DNA of 64,000 nucleotides from Actinomycetota bacterium (lineage in GTDB: Bacteria; Actinomycetota; UBA4738; HRBIN12): the NCBI GenBank assembly GCA_046724395.1, contig JBKOWM010000020.1, forward strand, positions 12 through 64,011. Direction: 5' to 3'. This document shows positions 5,896 to 59,121 of this stretch, in pieces; position 1 is the first letter of the stretch; each line of letters begins with the position of its first letter. Under the pieces are notes generated by a model that saw nothing but the letters and a program-made list of their open reading frames with translations, ran no database searches and had not been told where the DNA came from. The position numbers and the translations under genes are program-made.

Positions 5896-5977
5896 GGCGG
5901 CGAGTCTAGCAAGGCGTGCCGAGCGCCGGCGTGGGAGGATGCTCTCATCGTCTCGCCCTACGTGGAGGCCGCGATAT

Positions 5978-6370: not shown

Positions 6371-6376
6371 CGACGC

Positions 6377-6838: not shown

Positions 6839-7185
6839 CAGTAGCGGTCGAGCTCGCGCAGGCGATCGTCGCTGATGCCGAAGAAGTGCGCGACCTCGTG
6901 CGCCACGGTGTGGGCGATGAGGTCGCGCAGCGCATCGTCGCCGGCGCCGGCCGCACGCTCGATCGTCGAACGGTACAGCGTAATCGTGTCGGGCAGCACG
7001 CCGGCGTAATACGTCCGCTCGGTGAGCGGGATGCCGTGGTACCGGCCGAGGAGGTTCGGCTGACCGTGCGGCGGCCGCTTCTCGACGAGCACCTCAACAT
7101 TCTCGAGCCGGTCGAGCACCCACTCCGGAAGAGCATCGACCGCCTCGGCGACGAGGTTTTCGAACCGTTTACGACCGGATGCCAC
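6838..7185 (-). CDS. metallopeptidase-family (zinicin-like) protein
   Basis: C-terminal 'HTVAHEVAHFFGISDDRL' HExxH-type motif; about 115 aa; start overlaps the tadA start by 1 nt. Confidence 0.7.
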   Translation of the reverse strand: MASGRKRFENLVAEAVDALPEWVLDRLENVEVLVEKRPPHGQPNLLGRYHGIPLTERTYYAGVLPDTITLYRSTIERAAGAGDDALRDLIAHTVAHEVAHFFGISDDRLRELDRY

Positions 7186-7194
7186 CGACCGAGC

Positions 7195-8984: not shown

Positions 8985-9080
8985 GTGGCGACTTGCCTGT
9001 CAACCCGTGAACGACGCGAGCATCGTGGAATCACCCGGGGCGGTGGCGCGCTGGCGCCGAGGGCACGGGGTGTGCCCGGG

Positions 9081-10241: not shown

Positions 10242-10323
10242 CGGGGAAGGCTACCCGCGGCTCTCCGCGCGGGAATAGCCTCGTTGTTGTACCGGGCGGA
10301 AACGACGACGCAGAGGTTCGTTC

Positions 10324-20897: not shown

Positions 20898-21971
20898 GTG
20901 GAGCTCGGCGTCTATTCATTCGCGGAGCTGCATCCCGTCGCCGGGAGCACCGCCCCGGTCTCTCCCGCGCGCCGCTTGCGCGACCTGCTCGAGGAGATCG
21001 AGCTCGCCGACCGCCTGGGCCTCGACGTCTTCGGCGTCGGCGAACACCACCGACCCGACTTCGCCGTGTCGGCGCCCGCCGTCGTCCTGGGTGCTGCCGC
21101 GGCGAGGACGTCAGGGATCCGGCTCACCAGCGCGGTGACCGTCCTCAGCTCCGACGACCCGGTTCGCGTCTTCGAGGCCTTCGCGACTGTGGATCTGCTG
21201 TCGGGCGGGCGCACCGAGATCATGGCCGGGCGCGGATCGTTCATCGAATCGTTCCCGTTGTTCGGCTACGACCTGCAGGACTACGACGCCCTGTTCGCCG
21301 AGAAGCTGGAACTGCTGCTCCGGCTTCGCCAGGACGAACGCGTGAGCTGGTCTGGACGGTTCCGCCCACCGCTCTCGGGACAGAGCGTGTTTCCCAGATC
21401 CGTCCAGCAGCCGATCCCCGTCTGGATCGCCGTCGGCGGGAACCCGGAGTCAGCGATCCGTGCCGGACGTCTGGGGCTGCCGATGGCGCTCGCGATCATC
21501 GGCGGGCTGCCCGAGCGGTTCGCGGTGTTTGCGGACCTTCATCGGGCCGCGGCCCGCGAGGCGGGCCTCGATCCGGTTCCGCGGCTCAGCATCAACTCGC
21601 ACGGCTACATCGCCGAGACGTCACGCCGCGCGCTCGACGAATCCTTTCCCGGCGTCGCCGCCGCCATGAACAAGATCGGCCGCGAGCGGGGATGGCCGCC
21701 GATGACTCGACACGATTACGAGGCGGGCGCCGGGCTGCGGGGCGCGAATTTCGTCGGCGCGCCGGAGCAGGTTGTCGAGAAGATCCTGTTCCAGCACCAG
21801 ATCTTCGGGCATGACCGGTTCCTACTGCAGTTCACCGTGGGCTCGATGCCGCATGAAATGACGATGCGCTCGATCGAGCTGTTCGCGAACGAGGTCGCGC
21901 CCGCGGTGCGACGCGAGCTCGACCGCTCGGCCGTCGAGACCGGGCGGCTACCGGCTAGTCCGGACCCCTAG
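20898..21971 (+). CDS. LLM-class (luciferase-like) flavin-dependent monooxygenase
   Basis: TIM-barrel LLM pattern '[12 protein letters not shown]', '[12 protein letters not shown]', '[15 protein letters not shown]'. GTG start; the upstream part of the 816-aa ORF is antisense to sbp. Confidence 0.8.
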
Positions 21972-22171
21972 CTCGCCCTGCCCCACCGGCCGCGCTCGTC
22001 GCCTTCGTCCGCCGCCACCTCGTCCATGATTGCGCGGAGCTTGGCGTGCGCGACGGGGCGGGTCTTGCGGTTGAACCACAGCGGCGGATATCGGTCGTCC
22101 TCGAAGTGAATCGTGATGTCGTCGTCCTTCTCGATGAGCGTCACACCTATCTTCGCGACTCGCCTGGACAT
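21968..22171 (-). CDS. hypothetical small protein (67 aa)
   Basis: SD 'GGGAGGAG' 6 nt before ATG 22171. Product [67 protein letters not shown]. Confidence 0.4.
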
Positions 22172-22327
22172 TCGCGGCTCCTCCCGAAAGCCGAGCGGCT
22201 TCTCCCCGCCTACCCCGCGGTTCTCGCCGTCACACGCCCTCGGATCCGCACGCACGCACGCGGCCGCCGCGGCGGCTCAGGGTCCCCTCCTACCGGTTCG
22301 CCGCCAGCTCGGGAGGATGATGCGGGA

Positions 22328-23623
22328 GTGCCGCGAAGCCGCGACGGCCATGCGCCGCATTCCACTGGGGGGCAGGCATACCGCGCCGCGCTCCGCGGGT
22401 TCGGCTTCTTCCGGCATCTGGGTCCCGGATTCGTCACGGGGGCCGCCGACGACGACCCGGCGGGCATCGGGACGTATTCGCAGGTGGGTTCGCTGTTCCG
22501 CTTCGACCTCGTATGGACAGCCCCGTTCTCGTTTCCCCTCGCCTCCGCCGTGCAGGAGACCGCCGCCCGCCTGGGGCTCGCGACGGGCAGGGGTCTCGTG
22601 GCGCTCATCAAGGAGCGCTTTCCGCGACCGATTCTTTGGCTCGCGGTTGTTCTCGTCGTGGCCGCGAACACGTTCAACATCGGCGCGGATCTCGGGTCGA
22701 TGGCGGCGTCGTTCCGGCTGCTGATCCCGCTGCCGTACCCGGTCCTCGTTTTCGCGTTCGCCGTCGTGATCCTCGCGCTCGAGGTGTTGGTGCCGTACGA
22801 ACGCTATTCGTTGATCCTGCGGTGGCTGGCGCTGTCGATCGTCGTGTACGTCATCGAGCTCTTCGTGATCGACGTCGACTGGTCGCAGGTCGCGGCGGGA
22901 TTCATCCCGCGCCTGCGGGCGGACGCGAGCTACATCCAGGCGATCGTCGCGATCTTCGGGACGACCATCTCGCCGTACCTGTTCGTCTGGCAGGCCGGGG
23001 AGGAGGTCGAGGAGCGCAAGGCGGAACGGATCCGCCGCGTCGACGCCAAGGAGCTCCGGCTGATGCGTATCGACGTGATCTCCGGGATGGCCGCCGGAAT
23101 TCTGGTGATGTTCGCGATCATGGTTACGTCGGGCTCGACTCTGGGGGCCACCGGCGGCCGGTCGATCCAGACGGCGTCTGAGGCCGCGCGCGCCCTCGAA
23201 CCGCTCGCCGGCGGACTGGCGTCGACCGTGTTCGCGCTCGGCATCGTCGGGACCGGGCTGCTCGCGATCCCAACGCTCGCCGGCTCGGCGGCGTACGCGC
23301 TCGCCGAAGCCGCCGGCTGGAAGGAGGGGCTGAGCCGCAAGCCCTCGGACGCTCGCGCCTTCTACAGCGTCATCGCTATCGCGATGCTCGTCGGGGTAAT
23401 GCTGAATTTCGTCGGGATCGACCCGATCCACGCGCTCTATCTCTCGGCGGTCCTGAACGGGCTCGCCGCGCCTCCCCTCATCCTGATGATGCTCATCCTG
23501 TCGAACTCGGCGGCAGTCGGCCGGCGCAAAGGTGGACGGCTGTCCGACGCGCTGGTGGGCATTGCGTTCCTCGTGATGACGGCCGCGGCGCTCACCTATC
23601 TCGTCGGCCTGCTGACGAGCTGA
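22328..23623 (+). CDS. mntH: Nramp-family divalent metal (Mn2+/Fe2+) transporter
   Basis: 'GPGFVTGAADDDPAGIGTYSQVG' Nramp signature; 11 predicted TM segments. Start is uncertain (GTG 22328 after 'GGGAGGA'); the upstream extension overlaps the convergent small gene. Confidence 0.8.
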   Translation: MPRSRDGHAPHSTGGQAYRAALRGFGFFRHLGPGFVTGAADDDPAGIGTYSQVGSLFRFDLVWTAPFSFPLASAVQETAARLGLATGRGLVALIKERFPRPILWLAVVLVVAANTFNIGADLGSMAASFRLLIPLPYPVLVFAFAVVILALEVLVPYERYSLILRWLALSIVVYVIELFVIDVDWSQVAAGFIPRLRADASYIQAIVAIFGTTISPYLFVWQAGEEVEERKAERIRRVDAKELRLMRIDVISGMAAGILVMFAIMVTSGSTLGATGGRSIQTASEAARALEPLAGGLASTVFALGIVGTGLLAIPTLAGSAAYALAEAAGWKEGLSRKPSDARAFYSVIAIAMLVGVMLNFVGIDPIHALYLSAVLNGLAAPPLILMMLILSNSAAVGRRKGGRLSDALVGIAFLVMTAAALTYLVGLLTS

Positions 23624-23637
23624 AGATGCGGGACGAA

Positions 23638-23668
23638 GGGACCCCGGTGCCGCCGGGGTCCCTTTCCC
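23638..23668. terminator. bidirectional intrinsic terminator
   Basis: GGGACCCCGG-tgcc-gCCGGGGTCCC hairpin followed by TTTCCC, between the convergent Nramp and protease genes. Confidence 0.5.
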
Positions 23669-23700
23669 TCCAGCCTCTCGGTTTTGGCATTACAGCGTGG

Positions 23701-24657
23701 CTATGGCGTGATACCGAACGATGCGAGGAACGCCAGATCGTCCGGCTGGTCGAGCCGGTACGCCCCGCCGACGCCCGTGCAGTTGAGGTTTTGGCCCTGC
23801 CCGAACGACGTCACCGCGAGGACCAGGTGCGAGCTCGTGTCGTCGAACGTTGGGCCACCCGAGTCGCCGAAGCACGTACCGCCGGGGTGCGGGACGCCCG
23901 GGTTGTTCGACAGCACTATGTAATCGTCCGGCGGCGAGCTGTTGAGGGAGTTCAGCTTCACCTCGCCCTTCAGTCGGACGTCACCGCCCTCCTCGGTGAA
24001 CGGGCCGCTCTCCGTCAGCCCATACCCCACGACCTCGAAGAGATGGTGCGGGTCGGACTGATACCGGTCGATGTAGTCGAGCGTGGGGATCGTCCCGTAC
24101 TCGCCGACGGAAAGCCCGTCGTTCAGGACGACCACGCCGGCGTCGTGCACGTAGAAGAGCTCGTCGTCGTACTGCGGGTGAGGGTGCGCGGTGCCACGAT
24201 GCCAATACGGGCTCGCGTTCAACCAGTCGGCCCGGTCCTCATACCGCTGCTGGTTCTCGTCGGGGCCGTAGTTCGAGCTCGGCGGGAACCCCTCGAAATG
24301 CGCGTGCTCGCTGTTGTCGAACCAGATGTCGTTGCCGCCCGATCCGTCGTCGCCGCCCGTCGTGGTCGACTCGCCGTTCCTGCCGACGCCGAACGTGCAG
24401 TGCCCGGCGGTGACGATCACGGTCGGCGACAGCATCGTCGCCGAGCAGGTGAACCAGCCGCCCGGGTCGTTGAAGCGACTGTCGATGTAGTCCGGGTTGT
24501 ACCAGAGCAACTCGCCGACGTACGGATGCTCGCCTGCATCGGGTACTCCTGTGGTGATGGCGGACGCAGGAAGGCCTGCGCCACAGTGGGTCCGTCGCAC
24601 CGTCGCGCTTCGTTTCGCGTGGGACGCGTCGGTGAGCGTCTCGACTCCCGTACGCAA
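23701..24657 (-). CDS. trypsin-like serine protease (S1 family)
   Basis: Catalytic His 'TAGHC' and Ser 'GDSGGP'. N-terminus and signal peptide are unclear. Confidence 0.8.
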   Translation of the reverse strand: MRTGVETLTDASHAKRSATVRRTHCGAGLPASAITTGVPDAGEHPYVGELLWYNPDYIDSRFNDPGGWFTCSATMLSPTVIVTAGHCTFGVGRNGESTTTGGDDGSGGNDIWFDNSEHAHFEGFPPSSNYGPDENQQRYEDRADWLNASPYWHRGTAHPHPQYDDELFYVHDAGVVVLNDGLSVGEYGTIPTLDYIDRYQSDPHHLFEVVGYGLTESGPFTEEGGDVRLKGEVKLNSLNSSPPDDYIVLSNNPGVPHPGGTCFGDSGGPTFDDTSSHLVLAVTSFGQGQNLNCTGVGGAYRLDQPDDLAFLASFGITP

Positions 24658-24755
24658 ACGTACCGAGGAAATCTAGTCATCCGCACCGATATTCGGGCGA
24701 CATCGCCATCTCATACGTTGGCGCCACTCTTCGGCTCCATGTTGGGAGGTGAACG

Positions 24756-24926
24756 ATGAAGGCCTTGAAGCGTGGTGTCGCGGTCCTGGTGCTGACCGGG
24801 GCGATCGGCAGCTTCGCTACCGCTGCCTGGGCCAACCCGCCGCCGCCGACGAACGGCGGAAACGGCGCTGGGTCAAGCGGCCAGTGCACGGGCAACCCGG
24901 ACGGCCGCCCGGCATCTTGTCACTGA
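24756..24926 (+). CDS. small secreted peptide precursor (56 aa; mature about 30 aa with two Cys)
   Basis: SD 'GGGAGGTG' 5 nt before ATG. Signal peptide MKALKRGVAVLVLTGAIGSFATAAWA with an AXA cleavage site; mature NPPPPTNGGNGAGSSGQCTGNPDGRPASCH. Followed by an intrinsic terminator. Absent from the ORF track because it is under 60 aa. Confidence 0.5.
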   Translation: MKALKRGVAVLVLTGAIGSFATAAWANPPPPTNGGNGAGSSGQCTGNPDGRPASCH

Positions 24927-24939
24927 GCGCGCGCGGAGA

Positions 24940-24976
24940 AAGGCCCCGTCTCGACCGCGGGACGGGGCCTTTTCCT
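24940..24976 (+). terminator. rho-independent terminator
   Basis: GGCCCCGTC-tcgaccgcgg-GACGGGGCC followed by TTTTCC. Confidence 0.6.
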
Positions 24977-25785
24977 TGGCTCTTTCGGCTCTCGGGAACC
25001 TCAGCACCGTTGGACGATTCGCTCCGCGACCCGCCGGCGCGCGTCAGCGTCGGCGGCATCACCGCCGGCATCCGTGGTGTGAACGTCAGCCAGACGCGGC
25101 GGTGCGGACACGGACGGCATCACGCTCTTCGTTGGCCGTCGCCCGGCCTAGGTAACGGACGACGGAGTCGCCGTGTCTGGTGGCGTGCAACTCCACCTCG
25201 TCGTACGAATGCGCCGGGTGCTCGGCAACGCCCATGAGGGCGCTCTGTGCCGGTCAGCGAAGAACGTCAAGATGCACGACGGGAGTGCATTTGTCGGACG
25301 CACGACCTCGCCGCTGCCCGACAGCGGCCGACGCGCCGGGTGGCCGCGGACGTCTCGTCCTTTATCTCGCCGGAACCCATGCCGAATCAATACGGGAAGA
25401 CATCGTCGCCCGCCACGCAGAGGCACCCGGAAGGCGAATGCGCTACTGCTTCACGCACCACGAGGTTTGGGACACCCACCACCGTGACGACGCCTGCTCC
25501 GACGTCCTCGACCTGGGCGGCCAGCACGATCCGGCCGAGCTGAACCGCGCAGCGCCGATGTATGCGATTGCGATGGCTTCCCGGGGTCGGCCGCGACGAG
25601 GCACTCGTTCTGCAAGAGGTCGCCGCCACGCCTGAACCTGGTGTTCTCCGCTCCTGCCGGGTTTCGCCTTGGGACGAGCACCGGGACTCAGCCCTTGTGA
25701 GGACCAGGGACCGTCCCGTCCGGGAGGATTTCACGAAGCTGCCCAGAAGGAGCGGCGGGCCGGTCCCGTGGATTGATACCTCCGA

Positions 25786-25941
25786 TCACGTCGCCGACCA
25801 GACGTCGTAGTTCCAGTGGCCCATCGGGTAGCCCTGCGCACTGACCGCCTGAGGCGCCGTGTCGTGGTCCCACCCGGCCGGCGACTCCATGGCCGAGACC
25901 CGATCCCAGCGCTTCCAAAGCCTTAGGAACGCACCCTGCAT
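25786..25941 (-). pseudogene. ECF sigma factor fragment (region 2 only)
   Basis: 'MQGAFLRLWKRWDRVSAMESPAGW' parallels 'MVRVYERWDRVRQMGSPQGY' of the intact sigma at 30567..31100; no region 4. Confidence 0.3.
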
Positions 25942-26211
25942 GACCCCTCGGCCTCGGCGCGGTTCCCGCTCATGACGGCGAGCGCACCGAACAGCCTCCT
26001 GCTCTCGGCCTCGAAGAAGCGCTCGAACGAGGGAGCGGCATCGCGCGGTCCCGTCCTCTGTGGGGCTGACCGGAGACGGAACGGATCGGACTAGGCATCG
26101 TCGAACATGAACCCCCACCACACCTTGAAGGCTTACGTGCCGCTATCAATCGGCAGGAGGAGCGCGCCCGGCGCCATCCGGAGACGTGCCGACGGCCCCG
26201 CCGAAGCGAGC

Positions 26212-26579
26212 TCACGAAGACTCTTCAGATGCCGCGCCCTCCGGGCGCGGTTGCCACGGCCAGCGGGCCTCCGTCTCCACCTGAAGGGCCACGCTGAGGA
26301 ACGTACGGATGACGACGATCAGACCCAGCACGCCCACGCTTTCGAACGTCGGCGAGATGGCGACGGTTCGGATGATGTCGCCCGCCACGAGGAACTCCAA
26401 GCCGAGAAGGATGGCTCGCCCCAGCGCGCGGCGATAGGCGACGAAGCGTCGGCCGACCACCCGGCAACGGCTCGACGGACATACGCAACGGTCGCGACGG
26501 CAGCGCCGACCACGATGATCACTATTCCGGTGATGTCGACGGCCTTGCCAAGGGCTTCGACGAGCTCGTTCACGTTCAT
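26212..26579 (-). pseudogene. DUF1622-family membrane protein, frameshifted
   Basis: SD 'GGGAGGT' + ATG 26579 gives MNVNELVEALGKAVDITGIVIIVVGAAVATVAYVRR. The conserved C-terminal part 'AILLGLEFLVAGDIIRTV...' continues in another frame; the joint is near 26440-26470. Confidence 0.55.
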
Positions 26580-27744
26580 CGATACCTCCCAAACAGTCCG
26601 AAACATCGGACTGTCACGTGTCCGGAGAAGCCCAACACTGCTCGGCGTGCACCGCAACTGAGCGACGGCCCAGATCGTTCGCTACCGTCGATAGGACGTC
26701 ATATCGAGGCCCGACCTGTCGGCGGGTGGATCGATTCATCGACCCCTATGCGAAGCCCGAGATATGGAAGCTCCGCGCCGCGCCCGCCTGCGTCGCTTGC
26801 TCGATGTCATCGTGCCGCGGAACCGCTCGGTGAGCGTGCGAGGATCTCATCCACACCCCGCCGACAGCTTCCTCTCAGTGATGCCTCCCCGGGCGGGAGC
26901 CTGCCGTTTGTGGACGATTCAGGAGCGAGCGGCGGGCATCCCTTCGTCCCTGGACATCGTCATTCACCCGAGGAGGCGGACCGGCGCGAGGCGGACTACG
27001 ATCACCGGAGGGACCGAGCCTGTGCGTCGGCGGGCCCCGTCGCGACACTTGAGCGGGTGGAGGTGGACCGTGCCGAAGATACAGGGCGTCTCCAAGGCAC
27101 AGGCGAGCTATCGTCGCGCGACGAAACCAACGATCCGGTGCGGCGATTGCCGGTTTATGTGGCCGCGACTATCCGTCGGCGGCTGCCGGTACGTCCGTGG
27201 CCTGATCCACGCTGACGACGTCTGCGATCTCTTCGCTCCCGCGGCGACCAAACGTCCGTAGCCCACGACGTGTTCGAGAGGATCGGCTGACTCGCTCCCC
27301 TCCCCGCGACATGCCGAGTAACAACACCCCCGGGCAAGGATCGTCGTCGAGCGACAAGCGGATCGTCGCGGCGCCGACGGGAACCACGGGCCGAGCTCCG
27401 GCGTCGATGTGGCATCGGGGCACCTCAAAGAGGGCATCCCGTCTGCGTGGGCGGCGCTCACGCCCATTATGTTTCTCGGTAGCCGAGGGCTGAGTACAGC
27501 TTTCGAGCGGCGTCATTCGACAGGTGCGAGCATCACCAAGCGGCGCCCTCGCCCACGCCTCGATGGCGTTCATCAAGAGCGTCCCGAGCCGGTGCGCTGC
27601 CGTCGCGCGCAACGATCAGTTCATGTCCGGGACGAGCCTAGCGACACACGGCTCGCCTGCGCGTGCGTTCAGATATGTCACCCAAGCCGGTCGGGCCCAG
27701 GCGGCGCTGGACGCTGAAGCGCGGAGACGGCGAGGATAACGACG

Positions 27745-28248
27745 ATGTTGTCGTGGTCGGAGTTCGCATCCGACGAGCCTGCCATGGCCGCCGCCGGGGC
27801 AGCACTCTTGTATCAATTCGGCGGCGTCGGTCTTGCGTTTCTCGCGACCACACGAGGAGACGGGGGTCCGAGAGTGCATCCGGTGTGTCCCATCTTCCAT
27901 AACGGACAGCTTTGGGGCTTTCTGATCCAAAGTCCGAAACGGCACGACCTTCATCGCGACCCACGCTATGCGATGCACTGCTATCCTCCCGAAAACAACG
28001 AGAACGCCTTCTACATCACCGGAGTCGCGCGAGCGGTCGCGGACGATGCCGTTCGGAAGGCCGTCGCCACTACGTTTCTCGCAGAACGATCGTGGTCGAC
28101 TCCGCCACCAGAGTTCGGCCAACAGGAACTGTTCGAGTTCCTGATCCAGCGTGCCCTGCTCACTACCACGGACGGGCATGGCGATCCACATCCGCGCCAC
28201 CGTGTGTGGAAGGCGGAACGCGGACCTTCTACAGCGTCTGGAGGATGA
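27745..28248 (+). CDS. pyridoxamine 5'-phosphate oxidase-family (FMN/F420-binding split-barrel) protein
   Basis: SD GAGGA + ATG. 'LATTRGDGGPRVHPVCPIFHNGQLWGFL' and 'HRDPRYAMHCYPPENNENAFYITGVARAV' match the PNPOx-like family. Confidence 0.6.
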   Translation: MLSWSEFASDEPAMAAAGAALLYQFGGVGLAFLATTRGDGGPRVHPVCPIFHNGQLWGFLIQSPKRHDLHRDPRYAMHCYPPENNENAFYITGVARAVADDAVRKAVATTFLAERSWSTPPPEFGQQELFEFLIQRALLTTTDGHGDPHPRHRVWKAERGPSTASGG

Positions 28249-28539
28249 CGCACGCGATCGAGGCCTGGTCACCCTGGTTGGGCGAGGATTCAGATGTACC
28301 TCGACGCGTCTTGCCTACCTGCTCCGCCAGGGTCAGAGCCACACTTCACCCATTTGCATGACGGCGCCATGCGTGTGGGAGATCGGGTCGGAACGGTACG
28401 TGAAAGGGACGTTAAGGAAGTTGGTCTGCAGTGGCTGGCAACCCTATATGAACGGCAGGCGTTAGGCTGAGACTGGACGCCATTCACAAAGCATTCTGCT
28501 TCGTTCAGTCATCCCGTACGTATGGAGGGTCCTTGAGGG

Positions 28540-29007
28540 ATGAAGCCGGACATCAGCTATGCCCGGAATGGCGATGTAGCACTCGCGTACCAGATCCTGG
28601 GCGACGGCCCAACTGACCTGCTACTCCTGATCGGGTACCTGTCGAACTTAGAGTACGCGTGGGAGTACCCCTCGAGGGCCGCGTTCTTGACGCGGCTTAG
28701 ACACGGCCGCCGCCTCATCCTCATGGATCGGAGGGGTTCAGGCCTATCAGATCCGTTTCCTCCGAATCAGGCTCCGCCGCTTGAGACGCTTACGGATGAC
28801 GTCCGCGCCGTTCTCGATGCGGCCGGCTCTGCCCGGACGGCCTTACTTGGGGTGTGGGATGGGTGTCTGGCGGCAACGCTGTTCGCCGCGACATACCCAG
28901 ACCGGGTGACGTCCCTGATGCTGTTCAGCGGTAATCCACATGGAACTCTCGACGAGGCAACTGTCGTCGCCGACAGTCGAGCATCCATCCATGGTGATAA
29001 CTCATAG
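28540..29007 (+). pseudogene. alpha/beta-hydrolase, C-terminally truncated
   Basis: 'LLLLIGYLSNLEYAW...LILMDRRGSGLSDP...ALLGVWDGCLAATLFAATYPDRVTSLMLFSG' is the N-terminal half of the fold; it stops at 155 aa and is followed by non-coding junk. Confidence 0.5.
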
Positions 29008-29362
29008 ACCCGAAGCCAAGCGGGCCACTTCCGGCAACGAAGGCCGTGCTCTTTGGGGGAACAGCGACCGACCGAGCATACCGCTACCCTGACCGCCAGC
29101 CCTCCCCGATGGCTCCACGATCTTCCCCGCGTGGCTTCGCATGCTCCGACTGTCATTAGCGGTGACCACACGCAGCACGCCAACAGAGACAGTGGTAACT
29201 CACAGGCCCTGTGACCTCTCCCGTAGCCAAGCTTAGGCCTGAGCGGGCAAGGGGCACTCGCACATCAAGAGCGAATTGGGCGACCGGGGCCTTGGCCAAG
29301 ACGTCCGAATGGGTCTTCATCCAGGGTCTTGCCCGCCGTGGATCAGCACGCTGCTCGGTTCC

Positions 29363-30580
29363 TCATTGCCCTGTGTGCAACTCGAAGGAGTTCAGGACCG
29401 GTGCCGCCGCCTCAACCGCCCGCTCGAACAAGGCCCCTTCTGGAGCGGTAATCAAGATCGCCAGGGTCCGAGCGGACCCTCCGGGGAGGTCCAGGACGTA
29501 GACGCGGTCCAGGCGGCCGAGTCCAACACCGCCCCACGCTCCCCGCCCGGGAACGGACACGACCGGCACACTGCTCCCGCCACAGGGGGCGATGGATGCT
29601 CCCGGGGCGGCGGCCACGTCCATTCGCAGCGCATCGATCCCCCCGACGCGTTCGGTGACGGGCACCGTCGCCTCGAGGTCGGGGTTGGACCGGATGGCCC
29701 GGACCAGCTCCTTGGCAGAAGCCGGGATGCGCAGGCTGTCGCAGGGTGTCTCTGGCGGCAGCGGGTTCACGAGGATCTCAATGCCGGCAGGTTCACGTCG
29801 TCCGCCAGCTCCCACCAGGAAAAACAAGCGCGGGTCGATGTACGACTCGGCGTGGTCGATCCAGGGCTCGGCGGCGCGGAAGGTGACCTCCCCGTGGAGC
29901 ATGGCAAAGGTCCCGGGCCCGGCCACGCCGGCCTCCGTCGACGGGTCCGCCCAGTTCTCCGGCGGTGCTCCTTGGTTCCACACCACCCCCAGGTTGTCGT
30001 AGAGCCTGTCGGTGGCGGCGTCGAGGACCAGCGTGTAGCTGCGAAGCCCCTTCTCTTCGTTGGCGGGGATGTGGGGGTCGCTTCCGTCGTCGCATGCCAG
30101 CACGGGGGAGGGCACCACCAGGGTGGTTTGGCCCTCGAGCCGTCCGGTGCCCGTCATCGTTGTCGCGGAATGCGTCGAGCACGCGGGGACATCACGCGTC
30201 AGCACACTCAGGTAACTCATGCCAATCTGGTCGTCGTACGCCGTGATGTGGAGGACGCCGTCCTCCCCCGCGCTGATGGTCATCGTCTGATGAGAGGCGA
30301 CTCGCGCCCCGCCGTAATGGTTGTAGTCGGTGGAGGCCCACGCGCCCACGAACCCGTTCGGCGTTTGATCGGCCGGCCGGGTTTCGGCCCCCCACATGAA
30401 GGCCCGGGCCAGGACGCCGATGGCCGTGGCGGCCACAACCATCGCCACCACCACGGTCCCCACCCTGCGGTTCCGGTCCCGCCGACGGCGGCGGTCGAGC
30501 ACCCTGTCGAACAGATCGGACTGCGGCGCGTAGCGCGAGGCTCGCCGCTCGAGGAGGTCGTGGAGCTCAGGCATCCTCAT
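29363..30580 (-). CDS. putative anti-sigma factor (single TM, about 330-aa extracytoplasmic domain of unknown fold)
   Basis: Start overlaps the ECF sigma stop by 14 nt (alternative 8 nt). TM 'VGTVVVAMVVAATAIGVLARAF'. Large C-terminal domain with no motif I recognise. Confidence 0.6.
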   Translation of the reverse strand: MRMPELHDLLERRASRYAPQSDLFDRVLDRRRRRDRNRRVGTVVVAMVVAATAIGVLARAFMWGAETRPADQTPNGFVGAWASTDYNHYGGARVASHQTMTISAGEDGVLHITAYDDQIGMSYLSVLTRDVPACSTHSATTMTGTGRLEGQTTLVVPSPVLACDDGSDPHIPANEEKGLRSYTLVLDAATDRLYDNLGVVWNQGAPPENWADPSTEAGVAGPGTFAMLHGEVTFRAAEPWIDHAESYIDPRLFFLVGAGGRREPAGIEILVNPLPPETPCDSLRIPASAKELVRAIRSNPDLEATVPVTERVGGIDALRMDVAAAPGASIAPCGGSSVPVVSVPGRGAWGGVGLGRLDRVYVLDLPGGSARTLAILITAPEGALFERAVEAAAPVLNSFELHTGQ

Positions 30581-31100
30581 CCTCCAGCATCCGTCGGAGG
30601 TCGGCCTTGGCGCGAGACAGCCTGGCTCGAACCGACCCAGGCTCGATCCGCAGGGCCGTTGCGGCCTCCTCCTGGTCCATCCCCAGCCACTCGACCAGCA
30701 CGACCGCCTCACGTTGACCGGTCGGGAGCGAGGCGAGCGCCCTGGAAAGGCTGTCCCGGCTCTGCACCACCTCGGCAGGGTCCGGGGAGGCCGTGGCTTG
30801 GAGGAAGTGCCGCGCCCTGCTGGCCAGCCACCGGAGGCGGCTCCGGTGCAGGTTCAGGGCGGTCCGGTACAGGTATCCCTGCGGGGAGCCCATCTGCCGG
30901 ACCCGGTCCCACCGCTCGTACACGCGCACCATGGCCTCCTGGGTGAGCTCGTCGGCCTCGGCCGCGCTGCCGGTGAGGAGGTAGAGGGCTCGAGCCAGGC
31001 GAACATGCTCAGCCTGGAAGAACTCCTCGAACCGGGGGACGGTCACCGGGGTGACCTGCTCCGCGGTCTCCGGGGATCCCATCGCTGAGGATTCCATCAC
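30567..31100 (-). CDS. ECF sigma factor
   Basis: Region 2 'ELTQEAMVRVYERWDRVRQMGSPQGYLYRTALNLHRSRLR', region 4 'QREAVVLVEWLGMDQEEAATALRIEPGSVRARLSRAKADLR'. Confidence 0.85.
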   Translation of the reverse strand: MMESSAMGSPETAEQVTPVTVPRFEEFFQAEHVRLARALYLLTGSAAEADELTQEAMVRVYERWDRVRQMGSPQGYLYRTALNLHRSRLRWLASRARHFLQATASPDPAEVVQSRDSLSRALASLPTGQREAVVLVEWLGMDQEEAATALRIEPGSVRARLSRAKADLRRMLEDEDA

Positions 31101-31407
31101 GTCAGGTCATGAACGCGACCGGGGTCGATCTGTTGCGCTGCGGGAGGAAGAAACTTCGTTGACTCGCGGCTCGTGTCCCGCAGGATCCCGGCCTGCCGCT
31201 GACCCGACTTAGGCGAACCCGCCGATACGGCCGGGAAGCACTCGACGTTGATGAGGTGAGGCAGCACGTTCAGGACACGCGACGCGAACTGCCGCGGGAT
31301 CCGAAGCACGATCCTCGGGAGGAAGCGCTCCCCGGAACCAAGACCGTTCACGACGAGACAAGGAGGAGAGATCGGAGAGACGCCAGCGAACTCCAGGATG
31401 TCTCCCC

Positions 31408-31450
31408 GTGCCCCGGCAGGAATCGAACCCGCGACAAGCGGTTTAGGAAA
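31408..31450 (-). other. orphan tRNA 3'-half-like fragment (possible att-site remnant)
   Basis: Reverse complement ...GTCGCGGGTTCGATTCCTGCCGGGGCAC has T-stem/T-loop/acceptor architecture, but no matching 5' half or anticodon arm. Confidence 0.25.
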
Positions 31451-31675
31451 CCTCGTGAGCAGGGTGACCGAGTACGCCTGAGAGATGTTTCCGCAGGTAG
31501 GGGCGCTGCAGGTACCTCAGTCGATCCCAGTGTGCGGACACTGCTGGCGCCGCACTGGCCCGGCCTTCACAACCAAGAACGTGAAGGGCCGGGCCAGCCG
31601 CCTTCCGGAACCTTCTGCACTGAAGCGTCCTGAATCACGCCCGTAGCAGAATCCGCCCAGGGGGTTCTTGCTGTG

Positions 31676-32000
31676 ATGGGCGAACCAGTCCGCATCGTCG
31701 CTCGGAGCCGCCGGTCCCGGGGCCCGCCGACCTGGCGGCGAGCTTCGAGGGCTTCGTGGTCGAGAACCAGACCGGCCTGATCGGCTGGCTCTGCTTGATG
31801 ACCGGGAGCCGCCACGAGGCCGAGGAGATCGCCCAGGAGGCCTTTGTTCGCGTGCCCGAACGCTGGGACCACCTCCGGGGGCTCGAGGATCAGACCGGCT
31901 ACTTGTTCGTCACGGCGCTGAACGTCTTCCGCAATCGTTCGCCGAGCGGGAATCGCCCTGCGGCGATCGATCGGCGTGGCGCCGAATCAGGACGCGTTCG
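31676..32000 (+). pseudogene. ECF sigma factor pseudogene (frameshift after start; region 4 lost)
   Basis: ATG 31676 is out of frame by 1 with 'FEGFVVENQTGLIGWLCLMTGSRHEAEEIAQEAFVRVPERWDHL...YLFVTALNVFRNR' (region 2). Downstream is Arg-rich junk. Confidence 0.4.
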
Positions 32001-32204
32001 CCGGAGTCGAAGACAGAGAGGTCGTCCTCGCCGGGCTCCGGACGGAGGAGGTCAGGGCTTCCATGAATACACCCGAGCGGCTTCGATCGAACGTCTGACC
32101 ACGACGAGCGACGGGCCGTTCAAGCCGTGCGGTGCCTATATGCGGCTGACGGACGGGCGGGGTCGATGCCCTCACCTCGGTGCTCGAAGGAGGTGCGGTC
32201 GTCC

Positions 32205-32340
32205 TGGTGGCACGCCCTGGATGGCCGGATCGTCGGGATGGCGGCCCTCGCCGTAGCACGAGTCTTGTCAGGTGTGGCCGCGCACATTGAAGACGTCGTC
32301 GTCGACGCTGGACGCCGTCGTCGCCGGATCGGTCGACGGC
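32205..32340 (+). pseudogene. GNAT acetyltransferase fragment
   Basis: 'IVGMAALAVARVLSGVAAHIEDVVVDAGRRRRRIGRRL' resembles GNAT motif A; no intact ORF context. Confidence 0.3.
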
Positions 32341-32366
32341 TGCCGACGAGCGTTTCCGCTGCTAGC

Positions 32367-32438
32367 GCGCCGGGAGGGAGTCGAACCCCCAACCTTCTGA
32401 TCCGTAGTCAGATGCTCTGTCCATTGAGCTACCGGCGC
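32367..32438 (-). tRNA. tRNA-Arg (anticodon ACG)
   Basis: Reverse complement GCGCCGG-TA-GCTC-AATGGACA-GAGC-A-TCTGA-CUACGGA-TCAGA-AGGTT-GGGGG-TTCGACT-CCCTC-CCGGCGC-G; 73 nt. This is the cognate substrate of TadA. Confidence 0.85.
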
Positions 32439-32589
32439 TCCGGTACAGGATAACGAGGGCTTGGACGTGGAGCATCGGACAAGGCAGAAAGGTGGGTGCT
32501 CCATGCTCAGCCCCCGTACCGAGAACGAGAATCGCTGGTACGTCTCCCGGTGGTAGGCGGACGATTCCTCCGAACCTGGATAATGGGTG

Positions 32590-33130
32590 GACAAGTTCCC
32601 ATTCCCCGGTTCCCACCAGCGCCGCAATGCTCGCGCTGCCCTAGTGTGGTGGTATCGAGTGGAGCTTGGCCGCGACGCATTCTCGGGTCGGCCCACCCTT
32701 ACTCTTCTTTATGTAACCGGTGCCCGCGGTCCGAAGCTGCTGACGTCCTACACTCGAAGACATCACCACTTCCCACATCATCCTCCGAGAGACGACGCGC
32801 AACGCTCGTACCGGTGGACGAACCGAGCGAGCTATACCGCTGTCCCTTCGTTCCCGCGCCGCAGTCATGGAGCTTCGCGCCCCCTGGACGCGTGAACAAC
32901 CTCATCGGTGTGCGAGCCACACCGTCCAGGACTGGTGCCGCGGACTGTCTAGGGGAACCGCCTGAACGTCCAGCCGCACAAGTCCCGGAATACCTTCGCT
33001 ACCCATGTGCTGCAACGCGGGTGTTTCCATCCATGAGGTTCAGCGGCTTCTTGGGCATCGAGACGTCACCACCACGATGCCCTATGCCGTCGTCGCACAC
33101 CAACGCTGGGTAGAGGCCCAGTCGCTGTTG
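32590..33130 (+). pseudogene. tyrosine recombinase (integrase) remnant, frameshifted
   Basis: 'NTFATHVLQRG' then a +1 shift to 'VSIHEVQRLLGHRDVTTTMPYAVV' (box II, catalytic Tyr region). Upstream 'LTLLYVTGARGPKLLTS' (box I-like) sits in a third frame. Lies beside tRNA-Arg. Confidence 0.5.
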
Positions 33131-33898
33131 TCCCGACGCTTCCGTCGGTGCGGTAGAGCGGTCGATTCGTCCTACACCTTCGCCATTAACTAGCGTTCAC
33201 GTTCATAGGGGTGCGGAAGAGCGAGTGCAGTTTCGGAGATTTCTCCGCTACGGCGACCGCAGCCAGGAGTCCACGATCAGATAGAGGTACCCCGCCATGA
33301 AGGAGATAGCTACGAACGTCCACCACGTTGGGCGGGCCAACATTTGCGCTCTGCGGCGCCCATACCCCAGATAGACCAACACCCAGAAGGTCCGCGGGTG
33401 CGCGCGGAGCCACGGCGTACGCCGCCGGCGCGCGTCGAGAGTGAGCCACCTCGCCATGTGTGCCACCCTAGCGACTCATCAACCGCCCTACTAGTTCACC
33501 TTGAGCAGACAACGCCAAGCGTCGACACAGAACTCCAATTGGCCGCTGCGTCTGCCCAGACGAGTGAGTTCGCCGGCAGGTTTTCCGTGCTGCGACGGGA
33601 ACCGAAGCGACCTGAAGACCTCAACGTTGCACGATGGGAGGGCTGCTTCGTAAGAAGCTGGACGAATGGGCGTCGCGAAGCGCTGAGCTGCTCTAGACGC
33701 CAGAGCTGACTGACTTCGAGTGGGCAGCTGCGATCGGCGACCTGTGGGCGTCGCCGAAGTCTCGCTCTCTTGCAGAGTGCTCACCGACCCCGAGGAGGAC
33801 CGGATGGTTCGGGCGCTGCTCATCGGAATGCTGCGTGAGCGAGAGCGCGGAGGGTCGCACACCTAACGGCCGAGAGCGTACGTGTCGCTGGCCCAGTC

Positions 33899-34327
33899 AT
33901 GTTCCCTTCTCGTTCGCCAATAAGAGGTAGTCTGCCGGAACCGTCAGCCTCGGGAGGGACCTTGCCATCGAAGAAGACCGCGACGAACAAGACCATGGCC
34001 AAGAAGTCCACGGCCACGGCCAAGAAGTCGACGGCCACGGCCAAGAAGTCCACGGCCACGGCCAAGAAGTCGACGGCCACGGCCAAGAAGTCCACGGCCA
34101 AGAACACGACGGCCGGCGAGACCATGGGCGAGAAGACTTCCAACCCGCCGCAGCCGGGCGACCTCATCGTTATTGATTCCGCTCAGGTTGGCTCGCCCGC
34201 CCGACAGGGCGAAATACTGAAGGTCATCGATAGGGGCCTTGCCGTCAGCTACGAAGTGAAGTGGGCAGATGGACACGAGACTCTCATCACACCCGCTGCT
34301 GGAACGGCTCACATCCTTCCAACGTAA
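33899..34327 (+). CDS. DUF1918-domain protein with N-terminal Lys-rich heptad repeats
   Basis: C-terminus 'QPGDLIVIDSAQVGSPARQGEILKVIDRGLAVSYEVKWADGHETLITPAAGTAHILP' is DUF1918-like; N-terminus has (AKKSTAT)x5. Start ambiguous: ATG 33899, TTG 33962 or ATG 33995. Confidence 0.6.
   Translation: MFPSRSPIRGSLPEPSASGGTLPSKKTATNKTMAKKSTATAKKSTATAKKSTATAKKSTATAKKSTAKNTTAGETMGEKTSNPPQPGDLIVIDSAQVGSPARQGEILKVIDRGLAVSYEVKWADGHETLITPAAGTAHILPT
33998..34102 (+). repeat. 21-bp tandem repeat (about 5 copies, alternating C/G variant, i.e. 42-bp higher-order unit)
   Basis: gccaagaagtc[c/g]acggccacg repeated head-to-tail; encodes AKKSTAT. Confidence 0.8.
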
Positions 34328-34848
34328 CGCAAGCCCCGACTGGTTTGAGTCCGGCGCACGAGTGAGACGGAGGACCGAAAAGGCCCCGGAGGGAGAGGGC
34401 AGCCAAAGCCTCCGGGGCTGTTCTCCGGTTAGCGCATGAGGACACCTCGCGCTCTTCGGACGGACCGCAACCAGGAGGATATTGCGTCGCGACGAGGACA
34501 GAGGTGTGAGAAGGTCTACAGTGAGTTCCCCGGGTTAGGGATGTCGCCGAGCGACTTGGGAAGCCGCTTGTAGCAGCTCGGCAGCCTCATCGAACGCCAC
34601 GAGTGTGAGCTGGAGATGGCGTCGGCTTCGAACTTCCTTTCGTTACAGAACGACATGACGACTGGCGCTTGGTCGCGAGAACCAGAACTCTGGAACCAAT
34701 TGCTGTCTTGGGAGTTGAACGTCTGTCGGGAACCTGGGGCGTTGGACGGCGGGACACACATCATCTTCGCGATTCGACGGATCTGAAACCCAAGCCGTGC
34801 GCCGTACCCGCGCTGCGGCCGCGGGATCATACCGAGGCACGGCAGCCA

Positions 34849-35607
34849 CTACTCTGCGGGGACGACCGCCCACAGATCGTGGATGACTGGGTGCCGTTGC
34901 GGCGCCGGCGGGCTGGGGTCGGTGGGTCGAACGATCTGGAACGTCCGCATGCCGAGCGCCGCTCCACCTTCGAGGTAGGCGGGTTGGTCGTCCACGAACG
35001 TGGTCGTCGCCGGATCGGCGCCGATCCTGTCCAGCGCGATGCGATAGATCTCTGCGTCGGGCTTCATGACACGTACCTCGAAGGAGAGCACTACGGCGTC
35101 GGCCTCGTACTCGAGACGCAGCGCGTCGACGACCGGCCGCGTCCAGTGGTCGCAGTTGCTGACCACCGCCGTCCGGATGCCCCGCCGCCGGAGCTGCCGC
35201 AGCACGGGCAGAGAGTCCTCGTACAGATGGACGCCGCCGTTGGTCAGGGCCCGCATTTCGAGTGTGGTCAGCTCTCGCAGCTCGTCGTCGGTTGGTTCCC
35301 CTCCTGCTGCCCGAAGGACAGCGGCGAGATCGCCTTCCGGGCTGCCGAAGATCCCGACGCCTCGACGCTCGCGCGTCCTGACGAACCCCCGCATGACGTC
35401 CCGCGGGGTCACGCCGATGGTCTCCGCGAGACGTTCACGCAGCATCGGCCATTCTGTCCATGCCAGCGTGTCGTACAGGTCGAAGACGACGGCGTCCACG
35501 GCCCCGAGTGTAGGGGCCGAAAGGTCGTCGTCCGGCGCCTTGTCGAGGTCCGCCTCGCTCGATGCGACGGCGGAGACGGGATGACCTGAACCTCCGAAGG
35601 ACCTCAA
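34849..35607 (-). CDS. HAD-superfamily hydrolase (subfamily IA-like)
   Basis: Motif I 'VVFDLYDTL', motif II 'VVSNC', motif III/IV 'K..........FVDD'. Confidence 0.75.
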   Translation of the reverse strand: MRSFGGSGHPVSAVASSEADLDKAPDDDLSAPTLGAVDAVVFDLYDTLAWTEWPMLRERLAETIGVTPRDVMRGFVRTRERRGVGIFGSPEGDLAAVLRAAGGEPTDDELRELTTLEMRALTNGGVHLYEDSLPVLRQLRRRGIRTAVVSNCDHWTRPVVDALRLEYEADAVVLSFEVRVMKPDAEIYRIALDRIGADPATTTFVDDQPAYLEGGAALGMRTFQIVRPTDPSPPAPQRHPVIHDLWAVVPAE

Positions 35608-35745
35608 CAGCCTCGATTACGCGGAATCGCGGAGCACGCGAGTACCCGGGACGGACATTCTCGAAAGCCCTCGGCCATCGTCGCGCAATCTCGTGCGGCA
35701 GACCAATCGTAGTACTTCGTCATCGAGCAGGAGGGAGAAAGAGAA

Positions 35746-36015
35746 ATGCGCGTTCGACGTCTAATCCTGGCGGCGTCTATCTCCGGCGCAATCGTGGTCG
35801 TGTCCGACGGCTCCGCGTCGGCACATGTGCACGGCATCACGCCGCTACTGCAGTGCAGCGTCGACTCATCGAACTCGGGTGGTACCGCGACGGATACGAC
35901 GCCTGCCTCGGCCACGAACGGCGGACCGATCGGCGGACTGATCCCTTCGACGGTCGGGGACGCGCCGCTCGAGATCGGGGACGGCGGATTCGACGCACCG
36001 GTCGCCTGTCCGTAG
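35746..36015 (+). CDS. small secreted protein (89 aa, signal peptide, two Cys)
   Basis: SD 'GGAGGGAG' 8 nt before ATG. Signal MRVRRLILAASISGAIVVVSDGSASA, then a Gly/Thr/Ser-rich mature region with Cys at both ends. Confidence 0.55.
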   Translation: MRVRRLILAASISGAIVVVSDGSASAHVHGITPLLQCSVDSSNSGGTATDTTPASATNGGPIGGLIPSTVGDAPLEIGDGGFDAPVACP

Positions 36016-36017
36016 TC

Positions 36018-36344
36018 TCACCACGCGCCAGGGCCTTCTCTGGGCGGTCGCACTGCCATGGCCTTTCGGTTGAGCAACCCCCGCTCGTAGGCGGCGACCG
36101 CCGCCTGCCCTGTGCGCCTGACTCGCAGCTTTGCGCGGACGTGGGCCAGGTGTGAGTGCACGGTGGCCGGCGACATCCCAACGACCTCCCCGAGGCGCTG
36201 GTAGTTGGTTGTCCGGTAATGCCAGCACGCGGACAGGACGTCGCGTTCACGGGGCGTGAGCGGGCACGGGCACGGCGTCCAGCGTCCCCACCGGCGCGAC
36301 CCGTGACATATGGCCAATTGGCCATTTGCCGACCCGTGCATCAA
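36018..36344 (-). CDS. LuxR-family HTH protein (GerE-type domain only)
   Basis: 'LTPRERDVLSACWHYRTTNYQRLGEVVGMSPATVHSHLAHVRAKLRV'. Convergent with the secreted-protein gene with 2 nt spacing. Confidence 0.6.
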   Translation of the reverse strand: MMHGSANGQLAICHGSRRWGRWTPCPCPLTPRERDVLSACWHYRTTNYQRLGEVVGMSPATVHSHLAHVRAKLRVRRTGQAAVAAYERGLLNRKAMAVRPPREGPGAW

Positions 36345-36475
36345 GCGGGTTCAGCCGCGTCTCACGAGGCCGTCCAGAGGGAGGGCGCGTAGCAGGGAGC
36401 CCGCGGCAAGCCATCGCACCGCGGACGCGGGCTGCGGACCAAGGGCGCCGGACGCGCGTGCGGACGCGGAGTCTG

Positions 36476-36565
36476 CGGAGACGGGAGGATTCGAACCTCC
36501 GGAGGAGCTCAACACCCCTCAACCGCTTAGCAGGCGGCTGCTTTCGGCCACTCAGCCACGTCTCC
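36476..36565 (-). tRNA. tRNA-Ser (anticodon GCT)
   Basis: Reverse complement GGAGACG-TG-GCT-GAGTGGCCGAA-AGC-A-GCCGC-CUGCUAA-GCGGT-long variable arm-GGAGG-TTCGAAT-CCTCC-CGTCTCC-G. Confidence 0.8.
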
Positions 36566-53770: not shown

Positions 53771-53796
53771 ACGCGTCATGACGACGGACTCTCGGT

Positions 53797-59054: not shown

Positions 59055-59121
59055 GAGCGACGAGGGTAGTCGGCTCGAGGCGATTTGGGAGGACGCGCAA
59101 GGAGTTCCTCCCGCCAACTCC

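Follow-up and report, generated by a model that had tools for sequence, protein, structure and literature searches.

Probable eroded remains of site-specific insertions in a tRNA-anchored plasticity zone of an uncultured soil actinobacterial lineage

Introduction

The locus described here raises the question of whether a gene-poor, apparently decayed stretch of DNA beside two transfer RNA (tRNA) genes is the residue of mobile elements that once inserted there. The stretch was first delimited at positions 24,980-36,475 of a 64,000-nt piece of DNA (the window, by which we mean the whole stretch that was analysed), taken from contig JBKOWM010000020.1 of assembly GCA_046724395.1, an Actinomycetota bacterium (UBA4738; HRBIN12). 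An initial annotation, made from the sequence alone, had described a lower-GC, heavily decayed mosaic island left by two or more successive tRNA-targeted integrations at tRNA-Arg and tRNA-Ser(GCT). We compared the locus with 80 species-level relatives and with contigs obtained from protein look-ups (individual loci carry L numbers below). The comparison leads us to regard the region as probably a tRNA-anchored plasticity zone, in which the eroded remains of several site-specific insertions are mixed with relocated intact genes. The core idea of the initial annotation stands, carried by a repeat of the tRNA-Ser end, a dead recombinase gene, a synteny breakpoint and tRNA-end repeats in the relatives, but no tRNA-Arg repeat bounds the left part. 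The DNA that is specific to the window relative to these relatives falls into three slots, named X (35613-36474), Y (32439-34848) and Z (22237-32364); the 3' ends of tRNA-Ser(GCT) and tRNA-Arg(ACG) mark where slots X and Z, respectively, begin.

Results

A conserved backbone sets the borders of the variable region

Across the relatives the locus follows a common order: hemB, hemC, hemA, an S58 peptidase gene, tRNA-Ser(GCT), a variable slot, a HAD gene, a spacer of 50-90 nt, tRNA-Arg(ACG), one gene, a 62-65-aa open reading frame (ORF), a luciferase-like gene, an optional kinase gene, DUF2292 and SBP. tRNA-Ser(GCT) comes after the S58 gene in 61 related loci, tRNA-Arg lies 50-90 nt past HAD in L062, L063, L081 and L082, and the distance between the two tRNA genes ranges from 1 bp to 8.2 kb. 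The window contains the following anchors of this backbone.

36475-36565, minus strand: tRNA-Ser(GCT), conserved anchor (ARAGORN; Rfam tRNA, 59.6 bits)
34849-35517, minus strand: HAD-family hydrolase, intact (Pfam Hydrolase, 5.2e-16)
32365-32438, minus strand: tRNA-Arg(ACG), conserved anchor between slots Y and Z (ARAGORN; Rfam, 69.4 bits)
21986-22171, minus strand: 62-aa ORF, left anchor (66-69% identical to the 62-65-aa genes of L081 and L082)
20898-21923, plus strand: luciferase-like monooxygenase, left anchor (77-78% identical to its counterpart in L081 and L082)

ARAGORN and Rfam agree with the initial annotation in placing tRNA-Ser(GCT) at the right edge, with its 3' end towards the island. 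The HAD protein of the window is 65-70% identical to the HAD proteins encoded between tRNA-Ser and tRNA-Arg in L001, L081 and L082, and the gene is conserved backbone rather than part of the island.

Homology to L081 and L082, whose S58 proteins are 85% identical to that of the window, stops at the HAD stop codon (34849) and at ~22236. Opposite the 10.1 kb of slot Z these two relatives carry one gene (~0.6 kb), and opposite the 2.4 kb of slot Y they carry 50-64 nt. The left border therefore lies ~2.7 kb beyond 24,980, and the Nramp and trypsin-like genes belong to the region. The border that had been drawn at ~24.98 kb corresponds to a terminator only and is no junction with the backbone, since window-specific DNA begins at ~22,237. 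When the proteins of L081 and L082 were used as tblastn queries, the non-coding-like DNA of the window yielded no traces of the PAS/HisKA_3 kinase gene or of other genes that occupy the slots in the relatives. The same queries ruled out a split chromate-transporter gene at 20.9-22.2 kb, which proved to be the intact luciferase-like gene on the other strand.

A copy of the tRNA-Ser end closes slot X

Slot X, 862 nt long, separates tRNA-Ser, at its 3' end, from the HAD gene of the backbone. Three features define it.

35570-35612, minus strand: degenerate direct repeat of the last 43 nt of tRNA-Ser(GCT), resembling an attachment (att) site (36/43 identical, 84%, to 36475-36517)
35746-36015, plus strand: 89-aa ORF with a signal-peptide-like start and two Cys
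36018-36344, minus strand: LuxR/sigma-region-4 type helix-turn-helix (HTH) ORF (Pfam Sigma70_r4, GerE)

The initial annotation had proposed a search for copies of the tRNA-Ser(GCT) 3' end at the boundaries of the island, and the 43-nt copy at 84% identity is what such a search returns, closing slot X (blastn-short E 0.002 against the whole window). The repeat lies 905 nt from tRNA-Ser and ~50 nt upstream of the point at which homology to the HAD genes of the relatives starts. It retains the variable-arm string TGTTGAG, which is specific to the window and differs in L081 and L082, and it also matches the tRNA-Ser 3' end of L001; Rfam gave nothing useful on this segment. In L019 and L059 the HAD match extends into the tRNA-Ser 3' end itself, and in L062 and L063 it begins 20-40 nt past that end. 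We presume that 35570-35612 is the displaced original 3' end of tRNA-Ser: a tyrosine-recombinase-type integration would have duplicated the last ~43 nt of the tRNA gene, and the displaced copy would since have drifted to 84%. Having decayed this far, the repeat is probably no longer a recombination substrate.

The slot contains no integrase, and its content is limited to the HTH ORF and the 89-aa ORF. The JGI gene caller reports only a 52-aa piece of the former, and the latter is called in one independent assembly covering that stretch. Neither the 89-aa ORF nor a 56-aa ORF of slot Z (24756-24926), which have two Cys each, matches a Pfam or NCBIfam family. The equivalents of slot X in the relatives hold unrelated genes over 0.9-5 kb. 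What is left in the window resembles a decayed 'cis-mobilizable' islet; X is the only slot that, like a cis-mobilizable element (CIME), keeps both att-type ends with the integration and transfer genes gone.

A recombinase pseudogene in slot Y and its intact relative

Slot Y, on the other side of HAD, holds two recognisable genes, of which one is dead.

32503-33130, plus strand: pseudogene of a short (~240 aa) Xer-like tyrosine recombinase (PF00589, 52.7 bits after frame correction)
33899-34327, plus strand: Lys-rich 7-residue repeat fused to DUF1918, intact (Pfam DUF1918; GC content at third codon positions, GC3, up to 0.97)

The pseudogene and tRNA-Arg point away from each other, and the start of the pseudogene lies at a distance of 65 nt from the tRNA 5' end. 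Its closest intact homologues are P0121 (245 aa, 61%) and P0122 (240 aa, 57%), a type that is Xer-like by NCBIfam with scores below all curated cut-offs. In tblastn alignments the pseudogene spans the full extent of the gene (628 nt vs 723-738 nt in the intact genes) and keeps the ATG, and it carries two N-terminal in-frame stops, more stops downstream, a ~31-codon deletion and at least three frame changes. No long ORF is called over 32503-33130 in two independent assemblies. This is a genuine, old pseudogene. The gene is dead, as was expected of a recombinase remnant broken across three frames beside tRNA-Arg, but it is a decayed copy of full extent and not a piece, and it stands on the 5' side of the tRNA.

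Among the related loci, tblastn found this recombinase in L084 only. There an intact gene for a 240-aa Xer-like recombinase (P0122; 10001-10723) is divergent from tRNA-Arg(ACG) (9856-9931) and lies 70 nt from its 5' end, the same position as in the window. L084 also carries two exact partial copies of tRNA-Arg: 43 nt of the 3' half (4106-4148), 5.7 kb downstream of the complete gene, and 41 nt of the 5' half (15489-15529), 5.6 kb upstream of it. The anticodon loop, at ATCCGTAG, is all that the two have in common. By this arrangement, the anticodon loop would have been the target of two elements, or of a single one that brought a tRNA of its own, the rare 5' side being used as well. We infer that recombinases of the L084 type may act at the tRNA-Arg anticodon loop, on the unusual 5' side as well, and the enzyme once encoded in slot Y, whose dead gene stands beside the tRNA-Arg 5' end, would likewise have recombined at the anticodon loop.

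The L084 arrangement also bears on a different history, in which slots Y and Z were one composite island that carried its own tRNA-Arg(ACG) and recombinase in mid-element, inserted into a resident anticodon loop and later lost both split halves. L084 does show a full tRNA-Arg and recombinase between 3'- and 5'-half copies that share the anticodon-loop core only, and the tRNA-Arg/recombinase pair of the window has window-specific DNA on both sides. Two independent insertions, one per side, explain L084 equally well, however, and tRNA-Arg lies 50-90 nt from HAD in four recombinase-free relatives, while the window has no tRNA-Arg half-copies. We consider such a composite island highly improbable.

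The second gene of the slot encodes Lys-rich AKKSTAT units through a 21-nt tandem repeat (family D1, 33967-34128). The same Lys-repeat/DUF1918 architecture, 59% identical, is found in L084, where the gene adjoins the tRNA-Arg 5'-half copy, and the DUF1918 part is found in L039; in both relatives it lies between the two tRNA genes.

Small inserts bounded by tRNA ends recur in the relatives

Copies of tRNA 3' ends are not confined to the window and L084. Downstream repeats of the tRNA-Ser 3' end are present in L012, L033 and L080, and downstream repeats of the tRNA-Arg 3' end in L026 (twice), L029, L061, L063 and L071. They bound inserts of 1-4 kb (L026 14832-18640; L029 13845-15683; L063 12045-14622; L033 11865-12824; L080 18712-19724), and in L026 two repeat-bounded segments stand in tandem. 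By ORF inspection most of these inserts hold one or two intact-looking ORFs with native-like GC3, which encode a kinase-like protein, a full-length hydrolase-cyclase, an ECF sigma factor with its partner, or a fasciclin-like protein; the L071 insert has no ORF and the L061 insert two short ORFs only. No integrase was seen among the ORFs inspected in the repeat-bounded inserts, and tblastn with this recombinase family found none there.

These inserts invite the thought that the locus is a cassette-exchange platform, on which units of one or two genes, ~1-4 kb long and bounded by tRNA ends, would be swapped in trans by the Xer-like recombinase beside tRNA-Arg, from either side of the anticodon loop, with the window as a burnt-out copy. 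We regard this as distinctly unlikely at present.

Slot Z mixes intact genes with debris

Slot Z is the largest of the three, and its features from left to right are as follows.

22046-23623, plus strand: Nramp transporter (Pfam; true start probably later)
23701-24657, minus strand: trypsin-like protease (Pfam)
24756-24926, plus strand: 56-aa ORF with a signal-peptide-like N-terminus and two Cys, behind a strong ribosome-binding site
24939-24978, plus strand: intrinsic-terminator-like hairpin (16-bp stem, U-rich tail, -40.9 kcal/mol, z -3.96)
25855-26027, minus strand: ECF sigma fragment, region 2 over two frames (Pfam Sigma70_r2, 26.8 bits with the frames joined)
26212-26579, minus strand: DUF1622 membrane-protein gene with a 1-nt deletion in this assembly (one frame fix gives Pfam positions 1-77 of 78, 83 bits)
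27745-28248, plus strand: candidate PPOX-class (F420-dependent type) oxidoreductase-like ORF (weak GC3 signal in the frame plot)
28540-29007, plus strand: truncated alpha/beta-hydrolase, N-terminal third only (Pfam positions 22-111 of 245)
29363-30574, minus strand: single-pass membrane protein, 403 aa, intact (transmembrane segment read from the translation; no Pfam family)
30567-31100, minus strand: intact ECF (SigE-family-like) sigma factor (Pfam Sigma70_r2, r4_2; GC3 0.87)
31406-31450, minus strand: tRNA-like 3' fragment (anticodon arm with 4/5 bp, T-arm and acceptor 3' strand, by reading)
31744-31938, plus strand: ECF sigma fragment, region 2 only (Pfam Sigma70_r2), head-to-head with the intact sigma gene
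32196-32342, plus strand: fragment of a GNAT acetyltransferase, confined to the motif A region (Pfam Acetyltransf_1, positions 33-80 of 116, 27 bits)

The block containing the intact sigma gene and its partner (29284-31414) has 88.5% nucleotide identity to L088, and this homology stops within ~9 nt of the 3' end of the tRNA-like fragment, which places the fragment at a synteny breakpoint with L088. Its anticodon loop reads TTCCTAA, and on that ground it may derive from tRNA-Arg(CCT). The orphan tRNA 3' half that had been annotated at 31.41-31.45 kb is thus recognisable as a tRNA-like fragment, but Rfam backs its T-arm only (tmRNA/tRNA T-arm, 31416-31433, E 0.02). In the history that we favour, the fragment would mark an old recombination junction, in a slot where intact genes (Nramp, protease, secreted peptide, ECF sigma and partner) are mixed with GNAT, sigma, hydrolase and tRNA-like debris.

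The left part of the slot (22237-24926) consists of intact genes with GC3 of 0.85-0.88 that the closest relatives do not have at this site; in L048, L049 and L060, homologues of Nramp are found between S58 and tRNA-Ser. The hairpin, a strong one, follows the 56-aa small secreted-peptide ORF and is the terminator previously noted at ~24.97 kb.

Further right, the intact ECF sigma factor (NCBIfam sigma70-ECF, 62 bits, above cut-off) is encoded by a gene to which that of the 403-aa membrane protein, a putative anti-sigma or sensor partner, is translationally coupled. The partner has more than 260 homologues with up to 88% identity. As side observations on this family, L088 carries an ECF sigma/partner pair head-to-head with a second sigma gene and a PD40/Tricorn-domain partner (5859-7723 and 8996-10718), and the longer members of the 403-aa partner family (~675-707 aa) have PD40/Tricorn beta-propeller domains.

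As annotated earlier, there are three ECF sigma copies, one intact with its partner and two reduced to region 2. The fragment at 25855-26027 forms an inverted repeat (I2) with 31777-31825 and has a tblastn match to sigma1 of L088. The fragment at 31744-31938 pairs with 30897-30986 as an inverted repeat of 90 nt, with 73% complementarity. Over 65 aa it has 52% identity to sigma1 of L088, and its resemblance to that protein rules out the reading that it is left over from the divergent sigma2 of the same relative. The alpha/beta-hydrolase is likewise truncated as reported: the fragment aligns with residues 28-159 of the hydrolase-cyclase of L029 (476 aa), and nothing of the remaining hydrolase can be detected downstream of 28540-29007. 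A separate gene has a cyclase-domain region (57008-57448) that shares 35% identity with the C-terminal half of the L029 protein. The expected GNAT fragment is present too, and its ORF (32127-32453) extends into the antisense of tRNA-Arg. The PPOX-like ORF scores below cut-off with both Pfam PNPOx_N (26 bits) and NCBIfam TIGR03618 (39 bits).

Much of this content would also be expected if no mobile element had ever been involved, and the genes had been shuffled within the genome by ordinary duplication, inversion, deletion and pseudogenisation in a neighbourhood under low constraint. The ECF pair, DUF1918, HAD, Nramp and trypsin-like genes all have homologues in the relatives, often nearby in another position or orientation; the GC3 of the intact genes is native (0.81-0.9); the three paralogous copies of sigma region 2 suggest local duplication; and slots Y and Z have no att borders. 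Such a history nevertheless leaves unexplained the 43-nt duplication of the tRNA-Ser end exactly at the edge of the backbone, a recombinase whose intact relative is surrounded by exact tRNA half-copies, a tRNA-like fragment at a synteny breakpoint, and the recurrent tRNA-end repeats of the relatives. We judge it unlikely, and retain the reading of eroded site-specific insertions with relocated genes.

Independent assemblies reproduce most of the decay

Decay of this kind could be imitated by consensus errors or chimeric joins in a strain-variable contig, with the genes really intact. The source is a 79.8-kb contig of a metagenome-assembled genome (MAG), and core genes are split in many related MAGs. 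An independent JGI assembly lacks the DUF1622 frameshift: in JGI sample 3300041966 the gene is called at 122 aa, with the same start and an end 1 nt further. Any single inserted base restores a 122-aa DUF1622 protein in the window, so this call is what one extra base would restore, and the frameshift is specific to the assembly or strain. Nine guessed intact DUF1622 sequences gave no hit by exact look-up, and the intact allele is deduced from the gene-call coordinates. The distance from HAD to the sigma partner also differs by +5 and -41 nt between assemblies.

Set against this, the exact 403-aa partner protein was found by look-up on five other contigs, two longer ones from JGI and three short ones (JGI and Logan contigs). 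The two independent JGI contigs agree with the window in gene order, both have the hydrolase truncated to 155 aa and neither shows a long ORF over the recombinase, and the three short contigs match 28759-30903 without gaps at 99.94-99.95% (L085, 99.95%). The in-frame stops and ~31-codon deletion of the recombinase go beyond single-base indels, and the flanking hemA, hemB, hemC, S58, SBP and luciferase-like genes align full-length as single pieces. A DUF1918 gene shorter by two 21-nt units accounts for most of the -41 nt difference; this gene is called at 107 and 121 aa in different assemblies, one contig is 41 nt shorter, and the number of units seems to vary between assemblies of the same population, with small indels in addition. 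An assembly artefact is consequently a very unlikely explanation of the region as a whole.

The DUF1622 split by a 1-nt frameshift, as initially annotated, is true of this assembly, but the gene is intact at 122 aa in an independent one. As to whether the frameshifts would vanish elsewhere, that of DUF1622 does in another assembly, whereas the recombinase stays without a long ORF in two. Single-base frameshifts in this MAG contig may accordingly not be biological.

Base composition and coding density

The interval 24980-36475 has a mean GC content of 65.5%, vs 68.6% outside it, with a mean of ~69% for the whole window. A drop to 52-62% had been estimated by eye; the drop is real but smaller, with 300-nt windows inside the interval ranging over 57-72% and none below 57%. 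It is confined to the non-coding-like island DNA (64.4% GC), the intact genes there looking native with GC3 values of 0.81-0.9, and the lower GC is as expected of DNA that no longer codes. The reported collapse of coding density is borne out: ORFs with the GC3 signature of the genome cover 28% of 24980-36475 vs 75% and 82% of the flanks, and 0% of 24980-29362.

Comparison of 10 unknown ORFs with PHROGs gave no meaningful match, and no phage structural, replication or lysis families that would indicate a prophage remnant were found by Pfam or PHROGs. The Rfam families Plastid-ycf2 and Plastid-psbl-rps4 match the antisense of the two tRNA genes (32365-32438 and 36476-36530, plus strand; E 2.5e-4 to 7e-4); as these models are tRNA-derived, the matches, far under the gathering score, are false positives. 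Two more tRNA-Ser genes, GGA and CGA (1107-1192 and 5804-5895), lie on the same strand within 5 kb, and blast searches with them showed nothing beyond their mutual similarity.

Discussion

We arrive at a locus whose gene content differs between relatives around two fixed tRNA genes, and whose repeat, pseudogene and breakpoint are most readily understood as traces of insertion. Recombinase-mediated integration, rather than other rearrangement, would have brought in each piece; this step is conjectural above all for slot Z. Several results weigh against the proposed history. First, searches of the whole window brought up no copy of either half of tRNA-Arg(ACG), 3' or 5', so that no att borders can be shown for slots Y and Z; the copy of the tRNA-Arg 3' end that might have bounded the large left part, and for which the initial annotation had suggested looking, did not turn up. 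Second, the same holds for the 31.4-kb tRNA fragment, which has no second copy in the window and no copy or partner in the related loci or in viral or metagenome collections; a first metagenome scan for it gave nothing and a relaxed one 11 loci, none of them tRNA-Arg(CCT), and the acceptor strand and anticodon arm in the suggested derivation from tRNA-Arg(CCT) were recognised by eye only. Third, the nearest relatives have only ~85-88% protein identity and offer no true empty site. Fourth, the best homologues of the ECF partner are 86-88% identical, vs 85-88% for the backbone S58 protein; a partner as divergent as the backbone fits vertical descent with relocation rather than foreign origin. 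Fifth, the DUF1918 gene is inverted relative to L084 and L039, which indicates that rearrangements other than integration also occurred. Sixth, the shift in composition is mild and not unique in the window, where stretches of 63-64% GC also occur at 52-53.8 kb (52000-53800) and 58.7-60.7 kb (58700-60700). Finally, a six-frame Pfam scan of the region revealed no excisionase, conjugation or phage genes.

The region invites comparison with known systems. It is like the islands that tyrosine recombinases insert at tRNA genes in that it adjoins tRNA genes, with a recombinase gene beside one of them, repeats the 3' part of a tRNA directly (in slot X, and in several relatives), varies in content between genomes and has a mildly lower GC content. 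Unlike in those islands, the recombinase of the window is short (~240 aa), lacks a recognisable arm-binding domain, is dead and stands on the 5' side of the tRNA; excisionase, transfer and phage genes are missing from the window, and slot Z, the largest part, has no att border. In the passages of PMC5704250 that cite Pavlovic 2004 and Bellanger 2011, CIMEs and the tandem accretion of decayed elements are described for integrative and conjugative elements (ICEs) of the ICESt1/ICESt3 type. Slot X and the 1-4 kb inserts of the relatives resemble CIMEs in retaining att-type repeats without integration or transfer genes, as does the tandem of L026; the inserts of the relatives differ from CIMEs in consisting of one or two intact-looking ORFs with native-like GC3 and in showing no obvious remains of a larger ICE. 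Slot X, whose repeat is down to 84%, would be a candidate for such an element.

A third comparison concerns the side of the tRNA that is used. The sublocation classes within tRNA genes go back to Williams 2002, as cited in PMC6563490, and the part of that article dealing with integration at the tRNA 5' part ('reversed target orientation', Zhao and Williams 2002) calls it considerably less frequent. L084 is like such 5'-side integrators, with a 5'-half copy 5.6 kb upstream and a recombinase abutting the 5' end of the complete tRNA, and the window keeps the tRNA/recombinase pairing. Since the displaced 5' half of the window is gone and its recombinase dead, the claim of 5'-side integration rests on L084 and not on the window. 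Nothing in the region is likely to be mobile any longer.

Regions of this kind are common and well understood, and the present one does not change the current view of how they arise; its contribution is a further case of tRNA-linked plasticity, in an uncultured soil actinobacterial lineage of which little is known. The HAD gene, the DUF1918/Lys-repeat gene and the ECF pair, some of which had been put forward as lineage-specific genes of the island, are conserved in the lineage, and none is an island novelty; most of the apparent cargo is thus conserved lineage material. The search for lineage-specific genes, and annotation, should not start from the first borders (24,980-36,475). What is useful here is the corrected borders, the warning about assembly-specific frameshifts and a lead to a short Xer-like recombinase that may act at the tRNA-Arg anticodon loop, including its rare 5' side. 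The lead of wider interest is the combination of such a recombinase beside tRNA-Arg with small, integrase-less inserts bounded by tRNA ends that recur in this lineage.

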